Source: Vicinamibacterales bacterium (GTDB taxonomy: Bacteria; Acidobacteriota; Vicinamibacteria; Vicinamibacterales; CAVVIG01). From it: DNA of 64,000 bases. The stretch covers positions 628-64,627 of the forward strand of contig JBEBGG010000003.1 of assembly GCA_040081555.1 (NCBI GenBank), given 5' to 3'. Shown here piece by piece: positions 54,027 through 63,489 of the stretch (within the stretch, counting starts at the first letter, position 1; every line of letters starts with the position of its first letter). The notes under the pieces were generated by a model that worked only from the letters and a program-made list of their open reading frames with translations, was not told the origin of the DNA and searched no databases. Made by a program: the position numbers and the translations under genes.

Positions 54027-54099
54027 ACCCATAGGATGTCGGGCGTTCTAATGTTCCAGCGAACTGCATTTCTCTTGCCGTCCTCTGATCGGAGCGTAC

Positions 54100-54825
54100 A
54101 TGACTCGAAGAATCCGTCGAGATCTCCGCATGCTCAAGGTGTGGGCCTTGCTCAGTACGAGTGTTTCCGCGTGGCTCGGCGCCTCGGCCCTGACCCACGG
54201 CCAGTCTCAGACCACAAAGTTCGACGAACTGAATGTTGAGCGGATCAACATCGTAGAGTCCGATGGACGGGTTCGTTTGGTCCTCTCAAATAGTGCTCGC
54301 CAAGCACAAACGGTGATCGATGGGCGCGTATTGGCGCCAGGTCGGAGCAGGCCTGCCGGCATGATCTTCTTTAACGAAGAAGGCGACGAAGTCGGCGGGG
54401 TGATCTTCAGCGGACTTAAGCAGCCGAACGGGCCGCAGGCGTCGGGCAGCCTGACATTCGACCAGTTCAAGCAAGATCAGACGGTCTCGCTCCACTATGC
54501 CGAGGGCCGGGGCCAACGGAGAGCGGGATTGGCGGTCATCGACCGCCCAAACGCGTCGCTGGCTTCGTATGCACCACTGATTGATCGGAGGCAGGCCGCA
54601 AAGACCGACGAGGAACGTGCCGCGATCGATCGAGAACTTTCGGCGCTGGGTCAGCCAAGTGCGCCGCGGATGTTTGTTGGCAAGGACGTCGATGGAAGAG
54701 CAACCCTCGCGCTTTCGGACGCAACAGGCAAACAGAGGCTCCTCCTGGGCGTCGCCCCGGACGGAAGCGCTAGCATTCGGTTCCTGGACTCTGCCGGCAA
54801 AGTCCTTCGGGAGATCGTGCCGTAG
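54100..54825 (+). CDS. secreted hypothetical protein (cassette 1, gene 1)
   Basis: 241 aa with a signal peptide. Repeated 'DG..R/S..L.L' strand-like motifs. No catalytic motif recognised. Confidence 0.6.
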   Translation: MTRRIRRDLRMLKVWALLSTSVSAWLGASALTHGQSQTTKFDELNVERINIVESDGRVRLVLSNSARQAQTVIDGRVLAPGRSRPAGMIFFNEEGDEVGGVIFSGLKQPNGPQASGSLTFDQFKQDQTVSLHYAEGRGQRRAGLAVIDRPNASLASYAPLIDRRQAAKTDEERAAIDRELSALGQPSAPRMFVGKDVDGRATLALSDATGKQRLLLGVAPDGSASIRFLDSAGKVLREIVP

Positions 54826-54827
54826 TT

Positions 54828-55436
54828 GTGGAATCCAAGATGCCTAACCTGACAGCCAATCTGGTGCTTGAACGCTGTCCCCATTGCTCTGTTGCCAGTC
54901 CGAATCTGCCTAGGCAGCACCATCTTGAAACGCAGGACCATGCCGGCGGCAATAGGCGCACGTGGGCGCTGTATGTGTGCGGCCGTTGTGGCGGCGTGGT
55001 GACGGCCTGCGCGACAGGCCATAGCCAGCTTGTTCAAGCACACTTTCCAGCCACGAAGTCAGTACAGGATGAGGTTCCTGAGAAGCCGCGGGCATTTCTC
55101 CAACAGGCTACAGAGAGCCTACACGCGCCAGCCGGGGCCGTAATGCTGGCCGCAAGTGCGGTTGACGCCATGCTCAAGATAAAGGGGTACTCCGAAGGTA
55201 CCTTGTACTCTCGCATCGAAAGAGCAGCTGCCGAGCACGCCGTTACCGCAGACATGGCAAGGTGGGCTCATGACGTTCGACTCGATGCCAACGACCAACG
55301 TCACGCCGATGAAGGGGCCGGTCTTCCTTCGCGGGCCGACGCGGGCCGCGCAATCGATTTCGCTCTGGCCCTGGCTGAGTTTATGTTCGTGTTACCCAGC
55401 CGCGTTCAGAGAGGCATTCAACAAGCTGCCGGCTAA
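54828..55436 (+). CDS. zinc-ribbon plus DUF4145 domain protein (cassette 1, gene 2)
   Basis: 'CPHCSV...CGRCGG' is a four-Cys ribbon. 'APAGAVMLAASAVDAMLK...WAHDVRLDANDQRH' is DUF4145-like. The TAA stop lies in the attC R'' box. Confidence 0.65.
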   Translation: MESKMPNLTANLVLERCPHCSVASPNLPRQHHLETQDHAGGNRRTWALYVCGRCGGVVTACATGHSQLVQAHFPATKSVQDEVPEKPRAFLQQATESLHAPAGAVMLAASAVDAMLKIKGYSEGTLYSRIERAAAEHAVTADMARWAHDVRLDANDQRHADEGAGLPSRADAGRAIDFALALAEFMFVLPSRVQRGIQQAAG

Positions 55437-55528
55437 TAGGCGCTTGCAGCCCACGAAGGTACGTTGAGCAGCCACCAAGAAATGCTCTAATCGCGCACGC
55501 CTTCGCGCCTGAAGCGCGAACGTTGGGC
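55431..55528 (+). repeat. attC-like site a (degenerate R'' GGCTAAT ... R' GTTGGGC)
   Basis: Shares 'CGCTTGCAGCC' with site e after the R'' box. Ends in GTTGGGCTGACAA, like site h. 98 bp. Confidence 0.55.
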
Positions 55529-55650
55529 TGACAAGATTCCGGACCAGCCTGGCCCGCGGCTTCGTTCGCAAAGGCGAGAATCAAGAAGGCGAAAAGGCCG
55601 GAACCGAAGAGGAAGCCCTAAATAACGTCAGGGATGCACGAGGATTCCAC

Positions 55651-56238
55651 ATGCGCCGCATTGTTGCCGTGCTGGTTCTGGTTGGCTTCGTAGTCGCCAC
55701 ACGCTCAACAGCCGCCCAGCCCCTTGACTCTCGTTTCCTTGCCCGGAAGTTCGTCGCACCCGAAAACGCTCCGTCGATGATCACAATGACGGACATGAAT
55801 GAAGGCGGCGAGCGGATGATCGTGACGGGCCAAGTCACGGACGGGTCCAAGCCGCTGGCAGGCGTATCGATTTACGTGTTTCAGGCCGACGCCAAGGGGC
55901 TATACACGACCGACGGTTTCAACAGTGATGACAGAGCGAGACTGCACGGTGCGATGCGCACCGATGCGACCGGGCGCTACAGGTTTGAAACCATTCGTCC
56001 GGCTGGCTACGGCGCCCCCCAGCCAATGCCCGCGCACGTCCACTACGTCGTCAGGGCGCCGAAAGGGTACAAATCGTTGATGTACCAGTTGTGGTTTGAG
56101 GATGACGCCGCCGTTGCCAAGCTCCGCGCAGATAACTCCCTGTTCAAACTGCCAGATTGGGTGGCCATCCGCCCAATCACACGCGATTCCGACGGCGTCT
56201 GGCACACCACGCGAGACGTGGTGCTGGATCGCGAATGA
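55651..56238 (+). CDS. intradiol ring-cleavage dioxygenase-like protein, secreted (cassette 2)
   Basis: 'VTGQVTDGSKPLAGVSIYVFQADAKGLY', 'GRYRFETIRPAGYG', 'PAHVHYVV'. Confidence 0.7.
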   Translation: MRRIVAVLVLVGFVVATRSTAAQPLDSRFLARKFVAPENAPSMITMTDMNEGGERMIVTGQVTDGSKPLAGVSIYVFQADAKGLYTTDGFNSDDRARLHGAMRTDATGRYRFETIRPAGYGAPQPMPAHVHYVVRAPKGYKSLMYQLWFEDDAAVAKLRADNSLFKLPDWVAIRPITRDSDGVWHTTRDVVLDRE

Positions 56239-56304
56239 CCGGCCTATGATTGGCCCGCAGCCCAACCTGTCTGCCATCCTGATTTCGAACCATGCTCAAA
56301 CAGT

Positions 56305-56365
56305 GCCCTAACCCTTCCCTCAAGCGGACTGGCCTTCGGCCCGCCGCTTAGATCACACGTTAGGC
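56305..56365 (+). repeat. attC-like site b (GCCCTAAC ... GTTAGGC)
   Basis: 61 bp. Arms CTCAAGCGG / CCGCTTAG around GGCCTTCGGCC. The R'' box has one extra C. Confidence 0.6.
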
Positions 56366-56398
56366 GTTCAAGTCACAGGCCAGGATCTGCAGAGCGTA

Positions 56399-57370
56399 AT
56401 GTTCCACACATACCAATTTGACCAACTCCCTCTTGATCGCGAAGTCTTCATGATGGATGAGCGTTGGCGAGCCGATTGGGAATCCGCGCAACAAGAAATG
56501 GTGCAAGGGCGCGGCGACGGGATTGTGGGCTTCATCAGCTATGTCGCTGTTCGGCGCTGCGGTTCTGATTCGGCGTCTCTGTCCTGGTATCCAAACATCA
56601 CAGATCGGTTTCACGAGCTGGGAATCCGATTACCTCGGACCGCCTTTGTGACCTGCGTCTCCGTTCCTGGTTGGGATGTTAAGCCGCATATCTTCGTTAA
56701 CAGTGAATGGCTCAACTCCCTTCACTTTCGTCCCTATACGGCATTCGCTTTGGTAGATGCAATCGGTGTCCGTGCGGCGTTGGCTGCAGGTGCATTGGGT
56801 GGCAAAGCGCTCGTTCGTTTGCGTGACCGAATCGATCAAATCGCATCTGAAAATCCCCAAGTTGCCTTTCTGAGCTTCGCTGACAGCCTGCTCCTAAAGG
56901 TCAACTGGTTTGTGGGGCAGTTCGGTAGCGCCGTGCGATATTCGTACGAGCCAGAGATCCTGGTGCGGCTGCTACCGACCATCGCTGCCGCCTTCGAGAA
57001 AGAGATTGGGCTTCCTGTATACACGGCCATCACACAGGGCGCAAATGAGTACGAAGACAGTGAACTGCTTCATTTCTCGGAACGAAGGAATCACGTATCG
57101 TTGAACAGTCTTGGCTTGCCGTTCGCGCAACTACAGGCGATCGATGGAGCTGCCAGAGCGGCAATCCGCGCGGGAAGGCACCCAAAAGCTGAGCTATACA
57201 TGGATGAGTGCTTCTTCCGGTCGCTGCGCCTTCGCTACGGCTTCGACAAGAAAGCCCTCTCGACAGGCATCTACAAGGCCCCGCTCTCATCCGAGGATGC
57301 GGAGTATGTCTGCGCTGATTGCGCCACAATCCTTGAGAATCTCGATAATGAAAAGTCGCAATCTGCTTGA
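56399..57370 (+). CDS. orphan hypothetical protein with a nucleotidyl-cyclase-like motif pattern (cassette 3)
   Basis: 323 aa, no signal peptide. 'TAFALVDAIGV' (D120) and 'VAFLSFADSLLLKV' (D162) are spaced like the two metal-binding Asp strands of class III cyclase/GGDEF palm folds. This is weak, pattern-only evidence. Confidence 0.55.
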   Translation: MFHTYQFDQLPLDREVFMMDERWRADWESAQQEMVQGRGDGIVGFISYVAVRRCGSDSASLSWYPNITDRFHELGIRLPRTAFVTCVSVPGWDVKPHIFVNSEWLNSLHFRPYTAFALVDAIGVRAALAAGALGGKALVRLRDRIDQIASENPQVAFLSFADSLLLKVNWFVGQFGSAVRYSYEPEILVRLLPTIAAAFEKEIGLPVYTAITQGANEYEDSELLHFSERRNHVSLNSLGLPFAQLQAIDGAARAAIRAGRHPKAELYMDECFFRSLRLRYGFDKKALSTGIYKAPLSSEDAEYVCADCATILENLDNEKSQSA

Positions 57371-57379
57371 GACGGTGAC

Positions 57380-57455
57380 GCCTAACTTGCGTTGCACCAG
57401 ACGGGGGCCAGTGTAGTGATGGGCCGCCGCTGGTGAACGCTGGCATTAGTTGGGC
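57380..57455 (+). repeat. attC-like site c (GCCTAAC ... ATTAGTT/GTTGGGC)
   Basis: Near-identical left arm to sites h and i (TGCGYTGCACCAGACGG). The homologous R' reads ATTAG (G to A), with GTTGGGC 4 nt downstream. Confidence 0.65.
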
Positions 57456-57486
57456 AGACTAAGGGACTTACAGAGCCGCAAGCCTT

Positions 57487-58326
57487 ATGTCGCCAGTCGA
57501 TCCCCTGTTCAGGGCGCGCACCGACAGACTCGTTCGGTCCGGGTACCTGCCGAGCTTTTCAGGCATGGCGCAGGCGATGTGCGCACCCTTCTGGTGGAGC
57601 GTCGGTCCGAAGGGCCGAGCTGAAATTCTTGGCAATGGGACAATTTGCTTCGTCAACACGGGCGGTGCCCACATCGGAGTCACGGCTGACCATGTATTCG
57701 CTGAGTATCTCTCCGCCAAGACAACTCATGCTGACGTTGAGTGCCAGTTCGGCGGGAACACCTTCGCTCCTGAGGGCTACCTCATCGACAGGAGCCCTGA
57801 GACTGAACTGGACCTCGCCACGTTTCGAGTACCTGAGGTCTTCGTAACGGCCAGTCGGGGCCACTATCACCACAATGCGCTGGCGTGGCCGCCGCCAGCA
57901 CCTCGCGATACGGAAGTTGTTCTCTACGGTGGGTATCCGCAAGCCCTCAGGAACCCGGATGGCGGCCAGGTTCACTTCGGGTTCGAGTACTTCATTTCTC
58001 GTGTCAGCTCTACAGAGGAGACTCGCGTCGTGCTGGATCCGGATCTCGCCAACTTGTACTGGCCGGGCCACGACGGTGAAGCGATCAACGTGCAGTGGGG
58101 TGGCATCAGTGGCGGTCCCGTCTACCGGGTAATCGATGCCTCGCCAGGTGCAGAGCCCGTTGACCGTCTGGAGCTTGTCGGCTTTGTCTATCAGCGTTGG
58201 CAGGAGGTCATGCTTGCCAGGCCAGCAGGTCTCGTGAACCTCGACGGAACGATCAATCGGGGCGCCATCGCCGCAACGCCGCCTAACCACGCGCTGGAGC
58301 CGACGCTACCCGGCGGTGTATCGTGA
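57487..58326 (+). CDS. trypsin-like (S1/PA-clan) serine protease, no signal peptide (cassette 4)
   Basis: Triad candidates: 'GVTADHVF' (H69), 'ELDLATFRV' (D109), 'WGGISGGPVY' (S208). The 3' end runs 46 nt into attC site d. Confidence 0.65.
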   Translation: MSPVDPLFRARTDRLVRSGYLPSFSGMAQAMCAPFWWSVGPKGRAEILGNGTICFVNTGGAHIGVTADHVFAEYLSAKTTHADVECQFGGNTFAPEGYLIDRSPETELDLATFRVPEVFVTASRGHYHHNALAWPPPAPRDTEVVLYGGYPQALRNPDGGQVHFGFEYFISRVSSTEETRVVLDPDLANLYWPGHDGEAINVQWGGISGGPVYRVIDASPGAEPVDRLELVGFVYQRWQEVMLARPAGLVNLDGTINRGAIAATPPNHALEPTLPGGVS

Positions 58327-58360
58327 CGCCGCGTAGCGCGGCTCAGCGCTACCGTTAGGC
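58281..58360 (+). repeat. attC-like site d (GCCTAAC ... GTTAGGC)
   Basis: 80 bp. GCGCTGGAGCCGACGC ... GCGCGGCTCAGCGC imperfect dyad. Confidence 0.8.
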
Positions 58361-58389
58361 AGATGACTCTGAACATCATGTAGTGAACC

Positions 58390-59217
58390 ATGGCCCTGGC
58401 AACTGACGATCCGCAGCCGATTCCCGGGTATCGAAACTATCTGGTCTACTGTGATGAGTCCGGCCAGCAGGGCAAGGTGTACTACGGCTTCGGTTCCCTT
58501 TGGATGCCGTGGGAGCGACGGGGTGATTTTACCGGTCTGATCGGGGCGCTGCGCGACAAGCATCGCTACCACCACGAGATCAAGTGGAACAAGATTGACG
58601 ACCGCAACGAAGGGTTCTACCGAGACCTTGTCGAAGAGATCTTTCGCCGCAACTGGCTGATGTTCCACTGCTTGGTAGGCCGCAAAGGCTACATCGACAA
58701 GTCTCTTCACGCCGGCGGATACGACGAGGCATTGCGAAAGCACTTCGCTATGCTGATGCGCAAGAAGATTGGCTTCTTTTCACAAGGCGACCGCCAGAAG
58801 GCGTATCACATTGTGGTCGACAAGATGCCATCAAGCTACGCCAAGGCTGACGAAGCGGCTCACGTCATCGTCAACCACACTTTGAAGCGAGAGATGGGCT
58901 TCACACCCGTCCACACTCTCGTCAGCCGTAACTCGAGAGATTCGGCAGGCATCCAGGCTGCTGACGTGCTGTTGGGCGCTGTGGTGACCGCCTGGAATCA
59001 AGAGAAATCTGGTCCGGCGAAGCAAGGGCTACGCGACTGGGTGGCCGAACATCTAGGCTGGCGGCATCTCAGAGCCGACACTCGCCACTGGGAATGGAAG
59101 TTCAATATTTGGTATTTCCATGCCGATGGCGGGACGAAGCCACGGGAGGCGCGATCTTGGGCACTGAACCTGAAGTATCCCGTTCCACCGTACAACCCGC
59201 GCCGACGCTCTGCCTAA
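58390..59217 (+). CDS. DUF3800 domain protein (cassette 5)
   Basis: N-terminus 'LVYCDESGQQGKVYYGFGSLW' is the DUF3800 hallmark. 'AGIQAADVLLGAV' lies near the C-terminal third. The TAA stop is inside the R'' box. Confidence 0.75.
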   Translation: MALATDDPQPIPGYRNYLVYCDESGQQGKVYYGFGSLWMPWERRGDFTGLIGALRDKHRYHHEIKWNKIDDRNEGFYRDLVEEIFRRNWLMFHCLVGRKGYIDKSLHAGGYDEALRKHFAMLMRKKIGFFSQGDRQKAYHIVVDKMPSSYAKADEAAHVIVNHTLKREMGFTPVHTLVSRNSRDSAGIQAADVLLGAVVTAWNQEKSGPAKQGLRDWVAEHLGWRHLRADTRHWEWKFNIWYFHADGGTKPREARSWALNLKYPVPPYNPRRRSA

Positions 59218-59283
59218 CTCCGCTTGCAGCCGACGGCGGCTGAGGCGATGATGAGCCGCCGCGGCTGATGAGTAGCGTTAGGC
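59212..59283 (+). repeat. attC-like site e (GCCTAAC ... GTTAGGC)
   Basis: 72 bp. GCAGCCGACGGCGGCT / AGCCGCCGCGGCTG arms with an unpaired A. Confidence 0.85.
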
Positions 59284-59293
59284 GGATTGCCTG

Positions 59294-60358
59294 ATGTCTG
59301 ATGAGAATGGAGTGGTGATGAAGCGACGCATGCTTGCCTCATTGGCCACAGTCGTGTGCGCAGCGTCGACCACCAGCTTTGCGCAGGCGCCACCGGCACC
59401 CAACGCCGCCTTCGATGTCTACCTCAGTCAGGAAGCGAGCGTCAGGCTCGAGGATGGCCGAAGTCTCCACCTTGTCTGCATGGGTGCCGGAAGTCCGACC
59501 GTCATTCTCTCCGCGGGGGCCGGCAGCTGGAGCGTCACCTGGGCTAGGGTGCAGGGCGAACTCGCCACACTGACGCGCGCGTGCGCCTGGGACCGTCCGG
59601 GTTTCGGTTTCAGCAGTGCGTCACCGATGCCACAGAACGTGGTCAACACGACCATGGACTTGGAGGCAGCCCTCAGTCGCGGCGGAGTCGAGGGACCATA
59701 TGTCATGGTTGGCCATTCGCTCGGTGGTCACGAGTCACTGATCTTCGCCGACCGACATCGGAGCTCGGTTGCCGGCATGGTGCTTGTAGATCCGGGCATT
59801 CCGGACCACTGGGCGCGTATCGGGCGTTCCGCACCAGCGATTCTGAAGGTAAATCACGAGATTTGGCCGCGGCAGGCCGCCGAGTTGAGGCAGTGCGCTC
59901 GGGTCGTTCGCTTTGAGGCTGATTCGGCCGAGGCAGACCGCTGCCGCCGGATTGGAGTGTCACCGAACTATTCGAAGCCGCTCTCTGACGCGCTGATTCA
60001 ATGGTCCGCGGATCCTGCACGGTTTGAAACACGAGCGTCGCTCGTCGAGAATTCAGAGCTGCACAGCCGGCTCGCGCTGAATCCAGACCGAGACTATGGC
60101 TCGATGCCGCTGATCGTGCTGTCGTCAACGATCCCAGATACCCCGCCGCCGGACCCGCCCGAGCGACGGGCGACGCTGCTCGCCGAGACGCCAAGGGCAA
60201 TGGCGGAAATGTTCAAGGGACACGAGGAGCTCGCCGCTTTGTCGAGAATGGGCGTACATAGGTCGGTACCGGATGTGGGCCACTTTATTCAAACGGCAAA
60301 GCCAGAAGTCGTTACTGCCGCGGTTGCGGAGATTGTTCAGGCCGTGCGCGCGCACTGA
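59294..60358 (+). CDS. secreted alpha/beta hydrolase (cassette 6)
   Basis: Signal peptide from the internal 'MKRRMLASL' (alternative start 59318). Nucleophile elbow 'VGHSLGGH'. C-terminal 'VGHFIQ' His context. Confidence 0.75.
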   Translation: MSDENGVVMKRRMLASLATVVCAASTTSFAQAPPAPNAAFDVYLSQEASVRLEDGRSLHLVCMGAGSPTVILSAGAGSWSVTWARVQGELATLTRACAWDRPGFGFSSASPMPQNVVNTTMDLEAALSRGGVEGPYVMVGHSLGGHESLIFADRHRSSVAGMVLVDPGIPDHWARIGRSAPAILKVNHEIWPRQAAELRQCARVVRFEADSAEADRCRRIGVSPNYSKPLSDALIQWSADPARFETRASLVENSELHSRLALNPDRDYGSMPLIVLSSTIPDTPPPDPPERRATLLAETPRAMAEMFKGHEELAALSRMGVHRSVPDVGHFIQTAKPEVVTAAVAEIVQAVRAH

Positions 60359-60442
60359 GGGGACCAAGGGATCCTTTTCGAAGTGCGCACGTCATTTCCG
60401 TGCACGGACTGACCTATTGCTGGCTCCTCATCTGCAGTTACC

Positions 60443-60525
60443 GCCTAACTTCGTCTGGAGCCGACGCGGCCCGCGTGGAACAATCACCGCGATCCGAGCC
60501 GCGCGGCTCATCTGAATCGTTAGAC
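60443..60525 (+). repeat. attC-like site f (GCCTAAC ... GTTAGAC)
   Basis: 83 bp. CTGGAGCCGACGCGGC ... GCCGCGCGGCTCA imperfect dyad. Confidence 0.8.
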
Positions 60526-60590
60526 CCTCAGTGGGAGATGATCCGGCGCATTGGCCGACCGCACACGCTCTTGGAGCACAGGTTCCGACC

Positions 60591-61979
60591 ATGATCCGAA
60601 TATTCCTCGTGGCATCCGTGACGGCTGCAGTGCTCGCAATCGGCCCGCACACGGGAAGCTCCGCCGCCGCTCAACAGCTAACGCCGTCTCCGTGGCGACG
60701 GTTCGATCGCAGCCCAAGAATCGAGCAGCTTCGTCGAGATCTCGAATCCGGCAAGACGGACACGACGCCCTTCTGGGCGGATATCAAGTCCAGCGGCACG
60801 CCACTCATCGAGCGACTGCCTGGAGCCACAAAGCACGCCCTGGTGACGTTTCTCTATCGCGGAGGACCTGACACTCGTAACGTCGTGGTGTTCCTCTCGG
60901 ACTTCGGTGGCGTCAGGCCGGCCGATCACATGATGTCCAGGCTCGGACAAACAGATGTCTGGTTTCTGACGGTCAGGCTGCCAAGCCAGGCACGGTTCAT
61001 CTATCGCCTGTCAATCAACGACCCGCTTGATAATCCGTTCCACGGAGCATTAATGGGCGGCACGCTGAAGCTTGACGAGCTCAACCCACATCGCTTCTTC
61101 AACATAGGAAGCATTGCGGAGTTGCCGGACGCTCCCCCGCAGCCGTGGCTCCAGAAGCCAGTCCAGGCCGGAATAGTCTCTGACCCTCAGACAATCACCA
61201 GTCGCCTGCTCAAGAAGGATCGAAAGCTGTGGGTATATCTGCCTCCAGGCTATGAACAGAGCAGATCAGTATCGAACCTCGTCATCCTGTTCGACGGCAC
61301 GATGTACGCGAACAGACTCGCCGCGCCTACCACTCTGGACAATCTGATCGCCGCGAAGCGGCTGTCATCGACCGTGGTGGTCTTCGTAGAGACACCAGTA
61401 GAAACCAGAAACGACGAGATGTTCTGGAACACGACATATGCGGATTTCCTCGCGAACGAGCTGGTTCCGTGGATCAGGGCTCGCTATCGCGTCACGAAGG
61501 ACGCAAGACGAGTGGTCGTCGGCGGTGCAAGCGCGGGTGGTGCCGGCGCCACATATGCCGCGCTACGGCACCCCAGGGTATTTGGCAATGTCCTGTCTCA
61601 ATCCGGCGGATTCTTCGCTTCACCTGAACGCAATCGTGAGTTGGCTGAGCGTTCGCCGCTCCTTACGCGCGAGAACGACGATCGTCACGTCGTCGAGGAG
61701 ATCGAGGATAGGGCTGTCACTGAGGGCGGATGGTTGGCGAAGCTCTTCATCCAGGAGCCTCGTCTGCCGATTCGTTTCTATCTCGACGTGGGTGCCTTTG
61801 AGGCTGATTTCATGGGCGGTGGTCTCGGCGCACTCGAGCCTAACCGCCACATGCGCGACGTCCTGCTTGCGAAGGGCTACGAGGTGCACTATCAAGAGTT
61901 CATGGGTGGTCACGACTACATTAACTGGCGCGGTACATTTGCTGACGGCATACTTGCGCTCATCGGGGAGACGAGGTAG
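60591..61979 (+). CDS. secreted esterase, enterochelin-esterase-like (cassette 7)
   Basis: Signal peptide from ATG 60591. N-terminal Ig-like segment 'VWFLTVRLPSQARFIYRL'. Esterase core 'VVGGASAGGAGATYAAL'. C-terminus 'GGHDYINW'. Confidence 0.7.
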   Translation: MIRIFLVASVTAAVLAIGPHTGSSAAAQQLTPSPWRRFDRSPRIEQLRRDLESGKTDTTPFWADIKSSGTPLIERLPGATKHALVTFLYRGGPDTRNVVVFLSDFGGVRPADHMMSRLGQTDVWFLTVRLPSQARFIYRLSINDPLDNPFHGALMGGTLKLDELNPHRFFNIGSIAELPDAPPQPWLQKPVQAGIVSDPQTITSRLLKKDRKLWVYLPPGYEQSRSVSNLVILFDGTMYANRLAAPTTLDNLIAAKRLSSTVVVFVETPVETRNDEMFWNTTYADFLANELVPWIRARYRVTKDARRVVVGGASAGGAGATYAALRHPRVFGNVLSQSGGFFASPERNRELAERSPLLTRENDDRHVVEEIEDRAVTEGGWLAKLFIQEPRLPIRFYLDVGAFEADFMGGGLGALEPNRHMRDVLLAKGYEVHYQEFMGGHDYINWRGTFADGILALIGETR

Positions 61980-62011
61980 GTCGCACATCAGGCAGTTAGT
62001 GGTTCGTCGGG

Positions 62012-62081
62012 GTCTAACATCGGCTGCCCTTGACCGCAGCCTTCATTTCTTGGCGGCCGCGAGTGAGCCGTGCCGTTAGGC
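62012..62081 (+). repeat. attC-like site g (GTCTAAC ... GTTAGGC)
   Basis: 70 bp. CGGCTG..CCGC / GCGG..CAGCCG-type imperfect arms. Confidence 0.75.
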
Positions 62082-62182
62082 ACTTAGTCGAATACACCTC
62101 CCGGGGCCGAGGGAATCTGAGTTCTGTCGCACGAACCAGTTCACCTTTGGCACGGGACCGTCACACTGGCAGGGTCGCGGCC

Positions 62183-62794
62183 ATGGAACGACGAACACTC
62201 CTTCACATCGGTATGCGGTTCTCGGCCGTTGCGGCGCTCGGCAAGACGCTGTCGGCGCAGACTCCCAAGCTCCTGATTCCAGCGGTCTATCTGTCGGAGA
62301 AGTACACCGCGCTCCCAACTGCGCCATCAGCCGTTGTCATTGCCGGTCCGGATGAACCTGGCGAACGCTTGGTTGTCACCGGGTGCGTCCTTGACGGCAC
62401 TAAACCTGTTCCCGGCGTATCGATCTATGCGTTTCACGCCGACCAGAAGGGGCTCTACGAACCACGGGGCATGAACCAAGGAGTAGACCCGCGGCTATAC
62501 GGTGCGATGCGAAGCGATGAGGGTGGACGCTATCGGTACGAGACGATCCGTCCGGGTTACTACGGCGGCAGCGACAACCCTGCGCATGTGCACTACGTGG
62601 TGAATGCGCCAGGGTACAAGCCACGTCTGGTCGATCTGCGATTTGAAGATGACCCGGTGATCGCCGCGCGCCGAAAACGGGGCGTCGATGATGACGATGG
62701 TTTCGAGCCTGGGAAAATGGTTGTGCGGCCGGTCGAGCGCGATGCCACGGGCGTGTGGCATGTAACGCGAGACTTGGACATGATTCGGGACTAG
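62183..62794 (+). CDS. intradiol dioxygenase-like protein with a Tat-like signal (cassette 8); paralog of 55651-56238
   Basis: 'MERRTLLHIG' signal. 'VTGCVLDGTKPVPGVSIYAFHADQKGLY', 'GRYRYETIRPGYYG', 'PAHVHYVV'. Confidence 0.7.
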   Translation: MERRTLLHIGMRFSAVAALGKTLSAQTPKLLIPAVYLSEKYTALPTAPSAVVIAGPDEPGERLVVTGCVLDGTKPVPGVSIYAFHADQKGLYEPRGMNQGVDPRLYGAMRSDEGGRYRYETIRPGYYGGSDNPAHVHYVVNAPGYKPRLVDLRFEDDPVIAARRKRGVDDDDGFEPGKMVVRPVERDATGVWHVTRDLDMIRD

Positions 62795-62816
62795 CCCGCA
62801 TCGTCACTCGCACGGT

Positions 62817-62885
62817 GCCTAACATGCGCTGCGCCAGACGGCCGCGGCGCTCATTGGTGGCCGCCGGTGAGCGCTATCGTTGGGC
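62817..62885 (+). repeat. attC-like site h (GCCTAAC ... GTTGGGC)
   Basis: 69 bp. Highly similar to site i (ATGCGCTGCRCCAGACGGCC ... GGTGAGCGCT). Confidence 0.85.
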
Positions 62886-62917
62886 TGACAAACACGACGA
62901 ACGGACTGATCTGATGG

Positions 62918-63153
62918 CTATCGGGAGTGCTTGAGACGAGCCTGCCAATGGCCTGGTTTCCGGCGGTCGTGGGCAATGGCGAGGATGCGAAGCTCCGGGC
63001 CTACTTCGAGATAGATGACGTGATAAGGGAAGCGGGTCACCGCACGGCGTCGAAGAACTCAATGCCGAGGTGCTCCCGGCAGTCCTCGTAGTACCGGCCG
63101 GCGAAACGGTACTCGGCGTACGCTTCGTCTTCAAATCGAACGCGCGGGTTCAC
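62918..63153 (-). pseudogene. decayed RelE/ParE-family toxin (frameshifted, possibly internally deleted)
   Basis: The GTG at 63153 overlaps the antitoxin stop (GTGA). Frame 1 reads 'MNPRVRFEDEAYAEYRFAGRYYEDCREHLGIEFFDAVR*' with a stop at 63037. The ParE-like C-terminus 'AVTRFPYHVIYLEVGPELRILAIAHDRRKPGHW' continues in another frame to 62918. Confidence 0.7.
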
Positions 63154-63395
63154 CGCCGCCGCAATTCCTCTTCGGCGCGACGACGAACCTCCTGCCATGG
63201 GACGCCAGCAGACTCCCCTGCCAGGACTCGCCTTGCCCTACGCCCGATTTCCGCGGCCCAGGCCGCTTCGACTTCGCCTGGATCATCCGCGGCTGCGTCG
63301 TCGAGGCTGGCCAGCAACTGCGCGGCCACATCGGCACGCTCATGGACCGGCAGGGCCAGTGCTTCTCGCAGAAGTTCTTGCGACCGTGGCGACAT
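63150..63395 (-). CDS. addiction-module antitoxin component (Unstab_antitox-like)
   Basis: 81 aa. 'LLREALALPVHERADVAAQLLASL...AWAAEIGRRARRVLAGE' is typical of this antitoxin family. Antisense to the cassette array. Confidence 0.75.
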   Translation of the reverse strand: MSPRSQELLREALALPVHERADVAAQLLASLDDAAADDPGEVEAAWAAEIGRRARRVLAGESAGVPWQEVRRRAEEELRRR

Positions 63396-63420
63396 GAGGC
63401 CATTCTACCGCGAGACCTCA

Positions 63421-63489
63421 GCCCAACATGCGCTGCACCAGACGGCCACCAAGGTCGGGACCGGCCGCTGGTGAGCGCTGGCGTTAGAC
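63421..63489 (+). repeat. attC-like site i (GCCCAAC ... GTTAGAC)
   Basis: 69 bp, a near-copy of site h. Confidence 0.85.

Follow-up and report, generated by a model that had tools for sequence, protein, structure and literature searches.

The window analysed here is a stretch of 64,000 nucleotides from a Vicinamibacterales bacterium (contig JBEBGG010000003.1, positions 628 to 64,627 of the forward strand), and the gene in question lies on its plus strand at 56399..57370. It is an open reading frame (ORF) of 323 amino acids with an ATG start, and it was studied through the reading frame, the homologues, an AlphaFold2 model of the product and Foldseek searches with that model. Judged from the predicted structure, it is fairly probable that the gene codes for a very divergent stand-alone enzyme with the class III nucleotidyl cyclase fold, a beta-alpha-beta-beta-alpha-beta palm, preceded by a family-specific N-terminal domain of about 110 residues.

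The gene and its cassette

A first-pass annotation of the window had described the gene as a single-gene cassette, and it is indeed the sole gene between two attC sites. The upstream site (CCCTAAC...GTTAGGC, 56306..56365, plus strand), found in a scan for pattern and fold, is 60 nt long, folds at -22.9 kcal/mol with R'' and R' paired, and goes with the dioxygenase-like cassette that comes before; the cyclase-fold cassette starts at the G|TT of the R' box GTTAGGC (56359-56365). The cassette's own attC (GCCTAAC...GTTGGGC, 57380..57455, plus strand), identified by pattern and folding, is 76 nt long and folds at -42.1 kcal/mol with R'' and R' fully paired. Both sites are imperfect palindromes with complementary R'' (YYTAAC) and R' (GTTRRRY) boxes. 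It should be noted that the sites were detected with a relaxed pattern combined with folding, and that a strict pattern missed most of them. Measured between the two R' boxes, from G|TT to G|TT, the cassette is 1090 bp long (56360..57449, plus strand) and contains one ORF.

Both flanking sites form part of an array with eight or more co-oriented attC sites, which extends from 56306 to 63489, no sigma-70-like promoter was found in 55400-57600, and the same unit of gene and attC is present at another locus, L119. A promoterless ORF bounded by attC sites, placed in a co-oriented array and found elsewhere together with its attC, is what is expected of an integron cassette. L119 carries the closest homologue (84% identity) in a different cassette array and after a different preceding cassette; the two cassettes share the start after the upstream R' box, GTTAGGCGTTCAA, and a near-identical downstream attC. 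The gene is functional and under purifying selection, as seen from a ratio of non-synonymous to synonymous substitution rates (dN/dS) of 0.12 between the window gene and the L119 copy.

The end of the attC reads ...GCTGGCATTAGTTGGGC in the window (57440-57455) and ...GCTGGCGTTAGGC in L119 (6313-6328). Where a G is expected at the G|TT crossover the window attC has an A, and 4 nt further on there is another GTTGGGC box.

The low GC content (G+C percentage) remarked on in the first-pass annotation is seen in the gene, which has 54.3% GC and a GC content at third codon positions (GC3) of 0.59, against 65.5% and a GC3 of about 0.8 in the core region 1-53000; the cassette as such has 55% GC compared to the 65.5% of the core, and the lowest-GC 60-nt stretch inside the gene has 41.7%. 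Rfam gave no match in the window. The product was said to have neither a signal peptide nor a transmembrane segment, and no hydrophobic stretch in it qualifies as one. The highest mean Kyte-Doolittle value over 19 residues, 1.72, belongs to AFALVDAIGVRAALAAGAL, which includes D and R and which in the model makes up strand beta1 and helix alpha1.

A predicted cyclase fold with two invariant aspartates

The AlphaFold2 model of the full protein, built from an alignment of 46 sequences, is a confident one, with a predicted local distance difference test score (pLDDT) of 89.5 and a predicted template modelling score (pTM) of 0.85. A Foldseek comparison of the model to the PDB gave 45 matches at E<=1e-3, and the top 50 matches are all catalytic domains of class III adenylyl or guanylyl cyclases, among them CyaC from Spirulina, Cya2, soluble guanylate cyclase, Rv1900c, Ma1120, the mammalian C1/C2 domains and rhodopsin cyclases. 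The best match has an E value of 1.1e-5 and a probability of 1.00, the target-normalised template modelling score is 0.5-0.7 across the matches, and the alignments of 200-246 columns span whole cyclase domains, which are about 165-200 residues long. Cyclase-domain proteins likewise ranked first in the viral structure library BFVD. The pattern recognised in the first-pass annotation was that of a cyclase/GGDEF palm, and a structure prediction was proposed there as a check. The prediction returned a palm fold and not an unrelated one; the cyclase part of the proposal is borne out by the model and by Foldseek, whereas GGDEF is the poorer match, since the protein contains no GG[DE]EF and the one diguanylate cyclase match, from the viral library, is weak (E 0.15), with none present in the PDB top 50.

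The cyclase-homology-like palm domain covers approximately residues 113-315 (56735..57343, plus strand), as delimited by the secondary structure of the model, the Foldseek alignments and conservation. In the model the palm begins with strand beta1 (residues 113-121), which contains D120 and is followed by G123, and continues with helix alpha1 (135-150), strand beta2 (156-160) and strand beta3 (163-170), the last with K167; D162 sits in the hairpin between beta2 and beta3. Then follow helix alpha2 (186-203), where P185 and E186 are conserved, strand beta4 (207-215) with Y208, Q213 and G214, a conserved loop (216-238) with N216, N231 and H232, a helix (239-257) with P241 and F242, and C-terminal strands with Y267 and Y303. 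The four motifs which the first-pass annotation quoted from this region are all present at the residues given: YTAFALVDAIGV at 113-124 with D120, VAFLSFADSLLLKV at 155-168 with D162, LPVYTAITQGANEY at 205-218 and SLNSLGLPFAQLQAIDGAAR at 234-253.

Only D120, D162, G214 and Y267 are invariant in an alignment of 81 diverse sequences reaching down to 21% identity. The codons for the two proposed metal-binding aspartates are found on the plus strand at 56756..56758 (D120, the first, at the end of beta1) and 56882..56884 (D162, the second, in the beta2-beta3 hairpin). Each aspartate is conserved in 81/81 of the diverse sequences, and both are invariant in the 46 close relatives as well, so that a check on their conservation, also proposed beforehand, came out in favour of the pattern. 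The two putative metal-binding residues are among the most conserved in the family.

For comparison a canonical alignment of 21 cyclase domains was assembled from PF00211 matches in related genomes. Its invariant or nearly invariant positions are the Asp of FxDIxGFT, the hairpin GD, the Gly of [HN][ST]G and an N/R pair in alpha4. In the model D120 closes beta1 with G123 at +3, as in the F-x-D-I-x-G motif, D162 is placed in the beta2/beta3 hairpin as in the G-D motif, and G214 closes beta4; the three residues thus agree in position and order with the first three canonical motifs, and no counterpart of the N/R pair was recognised. The register against the canonical cyclases was assigned by eye from the secondary structure, without superposition. 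An alternative register from hhalign, with D162 as the first and D220 as the second aspartate (1.4% probability), was rejected on conservation and secondary structure, because D220 is less than 80% conserved compared to 100% for D120 and D162.

The N-terminal domain (residues 1-110, 56399..56728, plus strand) has an alpha+beta structure and was also modelled separately. Folded alone with a 72-sequence alignment it reaches a pLDDT of 94.3, and Foldseek found no match among the solved structures of the PDB (best E 0.48). Two of its residues, R70 and H72, are each 96% conserved. The N-terminal and palm domains seem to pack as a single unit, given the high pTM of the full model. The segment with the highest conservation is the long family-specific loop 216-238; taken as 216-242 (NEY..D..LH.S...NH.SLNSLG.PF), the loop has no counterpart in cyclases.

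Several points weigh against a cyclase. The fold is a prediction and not an experimental structure, and no sequence method ties the family to cyclases: there is no PF00211 match at E<=1, sequence searches of the PDB were empty, and hhalign of the family alignments against the 21 canonical PF00211 domains gave probabilities of 0.8-1.4%. The kinship is visible at the level of the modelled structure only. The transition-state pair N128/R132 is invariant in the canonical alignment; here the helix expected to carry N-x-x-x-R begins G239-L-P241-F-A, with N236 three residues upstream and no Arg at +4. The position of the purine-specifying Lys is occupied by L158 (F157-L158 stand at the D-K of 'DKFxGD'), and the beta4 position of the phosphate-binding Arg holds Y208 in the register drawn by eye; in that same register no equivalent was recognised of the base-specifying pair (Lys/Asp for ATP, Glu/Cys for GTP). 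Finally, class III cyclases need a head-to-tail dimer to form the active site, and the model is monomeric.

Distribution and genomic context of the family

The protein was at first described as an orphan, and this did not hold. A collection of 5.8 billion proteins contains more than 552 homologues with 50-84% identity over the full length, and among representatives at 50% identity the family makes up 216 clusters, of which 81 are found at E<=1e-30. The homologues are typically about 330 residues long; in the longer ones (425-600 residues) the sole extra domain is a molybdopterin-binding tail, present in one protein. The statement that no family could be named was correct: nothing significant was found in Pfam, NCBIfam, PADLOC, PHROGs or sequence searches of the PDB. 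For Pfam and PADLOC this is true of the protein even at E<=1, and in the case of the PDB chain sequences it is true of the single protein and of the family profiles. The homologues are all named 'hypothetical' except for one which carries the submitter's label 'RNA-binding protein'. This homologue, from Aquipseudomonas ullengensis, divergently adjoins a CsrA-family gene and a tyrosine integrase (locus L001, 5650-5880), and the CsrA-family neighbour may explain the stray label.

Eighty loci that carry the family were retrieved; they belong to Alpha-, Beta-, Gamma- and Deltaproteobacteria, Nitrospirota, Nitrospinota, Acidobacteriota, Planctomycetota, Thermomicrobiales, Bacteroidota and Sulfuricurvum. 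The family is thus present in at least eight phyla (Proteobacteria, Nitrospirota, Nitrospinota, Acidobacteriota, Planctomycetota, Chloroflexota, Bacteroidota and Campylobacterota). Since only 3 of the 201 genomes of the host's order carry the gene and it is spread over so many phyla, it is a patchy, horizontally moving accessory gene. No homologue was found in a plasmid collection at E<=1e-5, and tblastn against 50,697 phage records gave none at E<=1e-5 and nothing relevant even at E<=10. Searches of the literature for defence cassettes in integrons and for defence of the cyclase type turned up no mention of this cyclase-fold family.

A frameshift or stop splits the family gene into two ORFs in 5 of the 80 loci (L027, L058, L084, L088 from Vibrio mytili, and L091). 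The split copies could be due to pseudogenisation or to assembly error, and they hint that the gene is sometimes costly or dispensable. Apparent tandem duplicates were rejected as frameshifted single genes.

When 1177 greedily called ORFs from 81 loci were clustered, no gene recurred from position -2 to +2 around the 75 family genes identified. The largest clusters of neighbours, the family itself aside, are generic regulators and ABC ATPases, and the flanks (600 nt, compared by tblastx) are conserved between close relatives only. The homologues are found in variable or mobile regions and not in metabolic operons, and at a distance of a few kb from them integrases, resolvases and rve transposases turn up repeatedly. 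In Vibrio ouci and Vibrio mytili the homologue lies between matching attC core boxes, GTTAGC upstream and GCTAAC downstream, and the Paucibacter copy is part of an array of nine attC-like sites. The gene is a traded module, carried as an integron cassette in several lineages and as a small island insertion elsewhere. One homologue follows a HigB-type Gp49 / HI1420 toxin-antitoxin pair, one is located between genes for AbiH, an nSTAND NTPase and a HEPN-Toprim protein, and one stands alone between Lon and DsrE. In the first-pass annotation an unrelated fold, or aspartates lacking conservation in homologues with metabolic surroundings, had been named in advance as findings that would count against the proposal; what was obtained is a predicted palm fold, invariant aspartates and variable or mobile surroundings.

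Some immediate neighbours match PADLOC models for DRT reverse transcriptases, mads, PD-Lambda-2 and PDC systems. PsyrT, AbiEii, DpdF and methyltransferases, however, are also present among control ORFs taken from the same loci at a distance of 5.5 kb or more, and because of these an enrichment of defence genes beside the family gene was not demonstrated when PADLOC matches among neighbours were compared to those among the controls.

The array region in the window covers 54045-63489. It has no integrase or attI at its left end, where a ferrochelatase gene and core genes abut. The integron integrase of the genome (449 bits to TIGR02249) is found on a separate contig of 2.9 kb (G000:C181), which also holds attC-like sites and a pair resembling a toxin-antitoxin system. 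Since no integrase or attI adjoins the array and the integrase is on another contig, the array is either a CALIN, i.e. an attC cluster without an integrase, or an integron split by the assembly. The cassette following the cyclase-fold gene codes for a stand-alone cytoplasmic trypsin-like protease (57487-58326) with weak matches to Trypsin_2 (E 1.2e-3) and to the LmuA model (E 5e-3), and two cassettes downstream there is a DUF3800 protein (58390-59217) whose match to PDC-M04A, a candidate defence model of PADLOC, has an E value of 2.6e-31. Small intradiol-dioxygenase-like proteins are encoded in two separate cassettes, at 55651-56238 and 62030-62794 (PF00775, E 7e-21; protocatechuate dioxygenase models). 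The low-GC region opens with a two-ORF unit, made up of the gene for a 241-residue protein of no assigned function (54100-54825) and a gene for a zinc-ribbon and DUF4145 protein (54828-55436).

Possible functions and comparison with known systems

What we infer for the cyclase-fold protein concerns metal binding, catalysis, the nucleotide product and the biological role. The most likely reaction is a two-metal nucleotidyl transfer on a nucleoside triphosphate (NTP). D120 and D162 would hold two Mg2+/Mn2+ ions and the turn D120-A-I-G123 would cradle the triphosphate of the NTP; the metals would activate a ribose hydroxyl, which would attack the alpha-phosphate with release of pyrophosphate, and the outcome would be a cyclic nucleotide or one modified in another way. 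The product need not be a 3',5'-cyclic mononucleotide, because the canonical transition-state and specificity residues are unrecognisable. As there is no conserved partner gene the protein must act alone, and three routes can be envisaged: the nucleotide product might act on receptors encoded by the host, the consumption of NTP might itself be the effect, or the protein might arrest growth or abort infection as a self-regulated enzyme which the N-terminal domain gates. A further reading would be a new, self-contained enzyme of immunity or growth control consisting of one protein, in which a previously unseen N-terminal sensor gates the diverged cyclase fold and a non-canonical product is made or NTP is burned without any effector; the role of the usual dimer partner in completing the active site might fall to R70 and H72 of the N-terminal domain. 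This reading we consider doubtful.

The cassette setting and the defence-like neighbours in the array make an anti-phage role a plausible hypothesis. The protein would then be a one-protein abortive-infection system whose N-terminal domain senses infection and frees the cyclase-fold domain, so that the cell or the phage is poisoned by the product or starved by the consumption of NTP. Compact defence genes are documented in integron cassettes, the gene is patchy and horizontally transferred, and the array that carries it also holds the DUF3800 protein with its PDC-M04A match, the DUF4145 protein and the stand-alone trypsin-like protease; elsewhere one homologue is placed amid AbiH, nSTAND NTPase and HEPN-Toprim genes, and some neighbours match the DRT, mads, PD-Lambda-2 and PDC models. 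The protein itself has no PADLOC match, however, the control ORFs at a distance bear defence genes too so that the neighbours show no demonstrated excess, and some copies stand alone amid housekeeping genes, as the one between Lon and DsrE. We regard the anti-phage role as possible, with the balance of probability against it. Another role in conflict has a precedent in PanT of the Burkholderia prophage phi52237, a validated, growth-arresting cyclase-like toxin which blocks transcription and translation by a chemistry that is unknown, which is paired with and neutralised by the antitoxin PanA (DUF4065), and which HHpred relates to cyclases at 97% (Kurata et al., 2022; PMC8832971). The cyclase-fold protein could be a growth-arrest toxin of this type which has lost, or never needed, its antitoxin and which makes the cassette selfish or addictive. 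Toxin-antitoxin modules are common in integron arrays, and the broken copies in 5 of 80 loci are what would be expected of a costly gene. It is nevertheless unlikely: no antitoxin-like neighbour is conserved and DUF4065/PanA is absent among the listed neighbour families, the 50,697 phage records yielded nothing relevant by tblastn at E<=10, and a dN/dS of 0.12 together with the wide spread of intact copies without a partner speaks against an unregulated toxin.

The remaining explanations were rated lower still. The predicted fold is that of the signalling cyclases, the host genome has three canonical PF00211 cyclases and hence cyclic nucleotide signalling, and there is no dedicated effector gene nearby, all of which would suit an ordinary accessory cyclase making cyclic AMP or cyclic GMP for the CRP or other cyclic-nucleotide-binding regulators of the host, with the N-terminal domain as a sensor of small molecules. 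Against this, the canonical specificity and transition-state residues are unrecognisable; the family has also diverged much further than any signalling cyclase that PF00211 detects, and its patchy, mobile distribution is atypical of regulatory wiring, so that this explanation appears quite improbable. It is also very unlikely, and the least probable of the alternatives, that the protein is a palm enzyme of some other chemistry (an oligonucleotide synthase, a primase-like enzyme or a nucleotidyltransferase acting on protein or RNA) or a non-catalytic nucleotide-binding protein. A palm with two aspartates is common to polymerases, GGDEF proteins and Cas10, the loop 216-242 is foreign to cyclases and several invariant Tyr and His residues are unexplained, but Foldseek placed only class III cyclases at the top and gave polymerases and the diguanylate cyclase only at E>=0.05.

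The class III cyclases themselves (the cyclase homology domain, PF00211) resemble the predicted fold in having an Asp that ends beta1 with a Gly at +3, an Asp in the hairpin and a Gly that ends beta4. The family differs from them in that no kinship is detectable at the sequence level and neither N-x-x-x-R nor the specificity pair is recognisable, and in that it adds the strongly conserved loop 216-238 and the N-terminal domain of 110 residues without a known fold; it is moreover stand-alone and mobile. GGDEF proteins and Cas10/mCpol share the palm with two Asp/Glu residues and the catalytic acid in the beta2/beta3 hairpin, but the hairpin of the present protein reads S-F-A-D-S and not GG[DE]EF or GGDD, and there is no Pfam match, PF00990 included. 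Pycsar, which consists of the pyrimidine cyclase PycC and an effector, PycTM or PycTIR, likewise places a fold of class III cyclase type in a mobile, defence-associated setting. It is a system of two genes, whereas no conserved neighbour was found at the 75 family genes and PADLOC, PycC included, gave no match.

Although its hundreds of members, from at least eight phyla, escape Pfam, NCBIfam, PADLOC and the comparison of profiles, the family has a predicted structure that is recognisable as a two-metal nucleotidyl cyclase palm. It is part of the pool of genes of unassigned function in integron cassettes and small islands, a pool now known to contain anti-phage genes. Should the protein be active, the class III superfamily would be extended to a mobile form without a partner, with a new regulatory domain and probably a new chemistry. 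The gene would then also be a compact test case of 1 kb, with one protein and two obvious point mutants.

The nearest studied analogue in behaviour, as far as the likeness to a published description goes, is PanT, the one studied case of growth arrest by a cyclase fold. Like the members of this family it is small, only cyclase-like, of unknown product and carried on a mobile element. It has the PanA antitoxin and a similarity to cyclases which HHpred can detect, whereas the present family has no conserved partner and is not detected as a cyclase by profiles. A defence or toxin function of the cyclase-fold gene, if established, would count alongside the PanT-type toxin in favour of the view that enzymes with a cyclase fold act alone in bacterial conflict systems.

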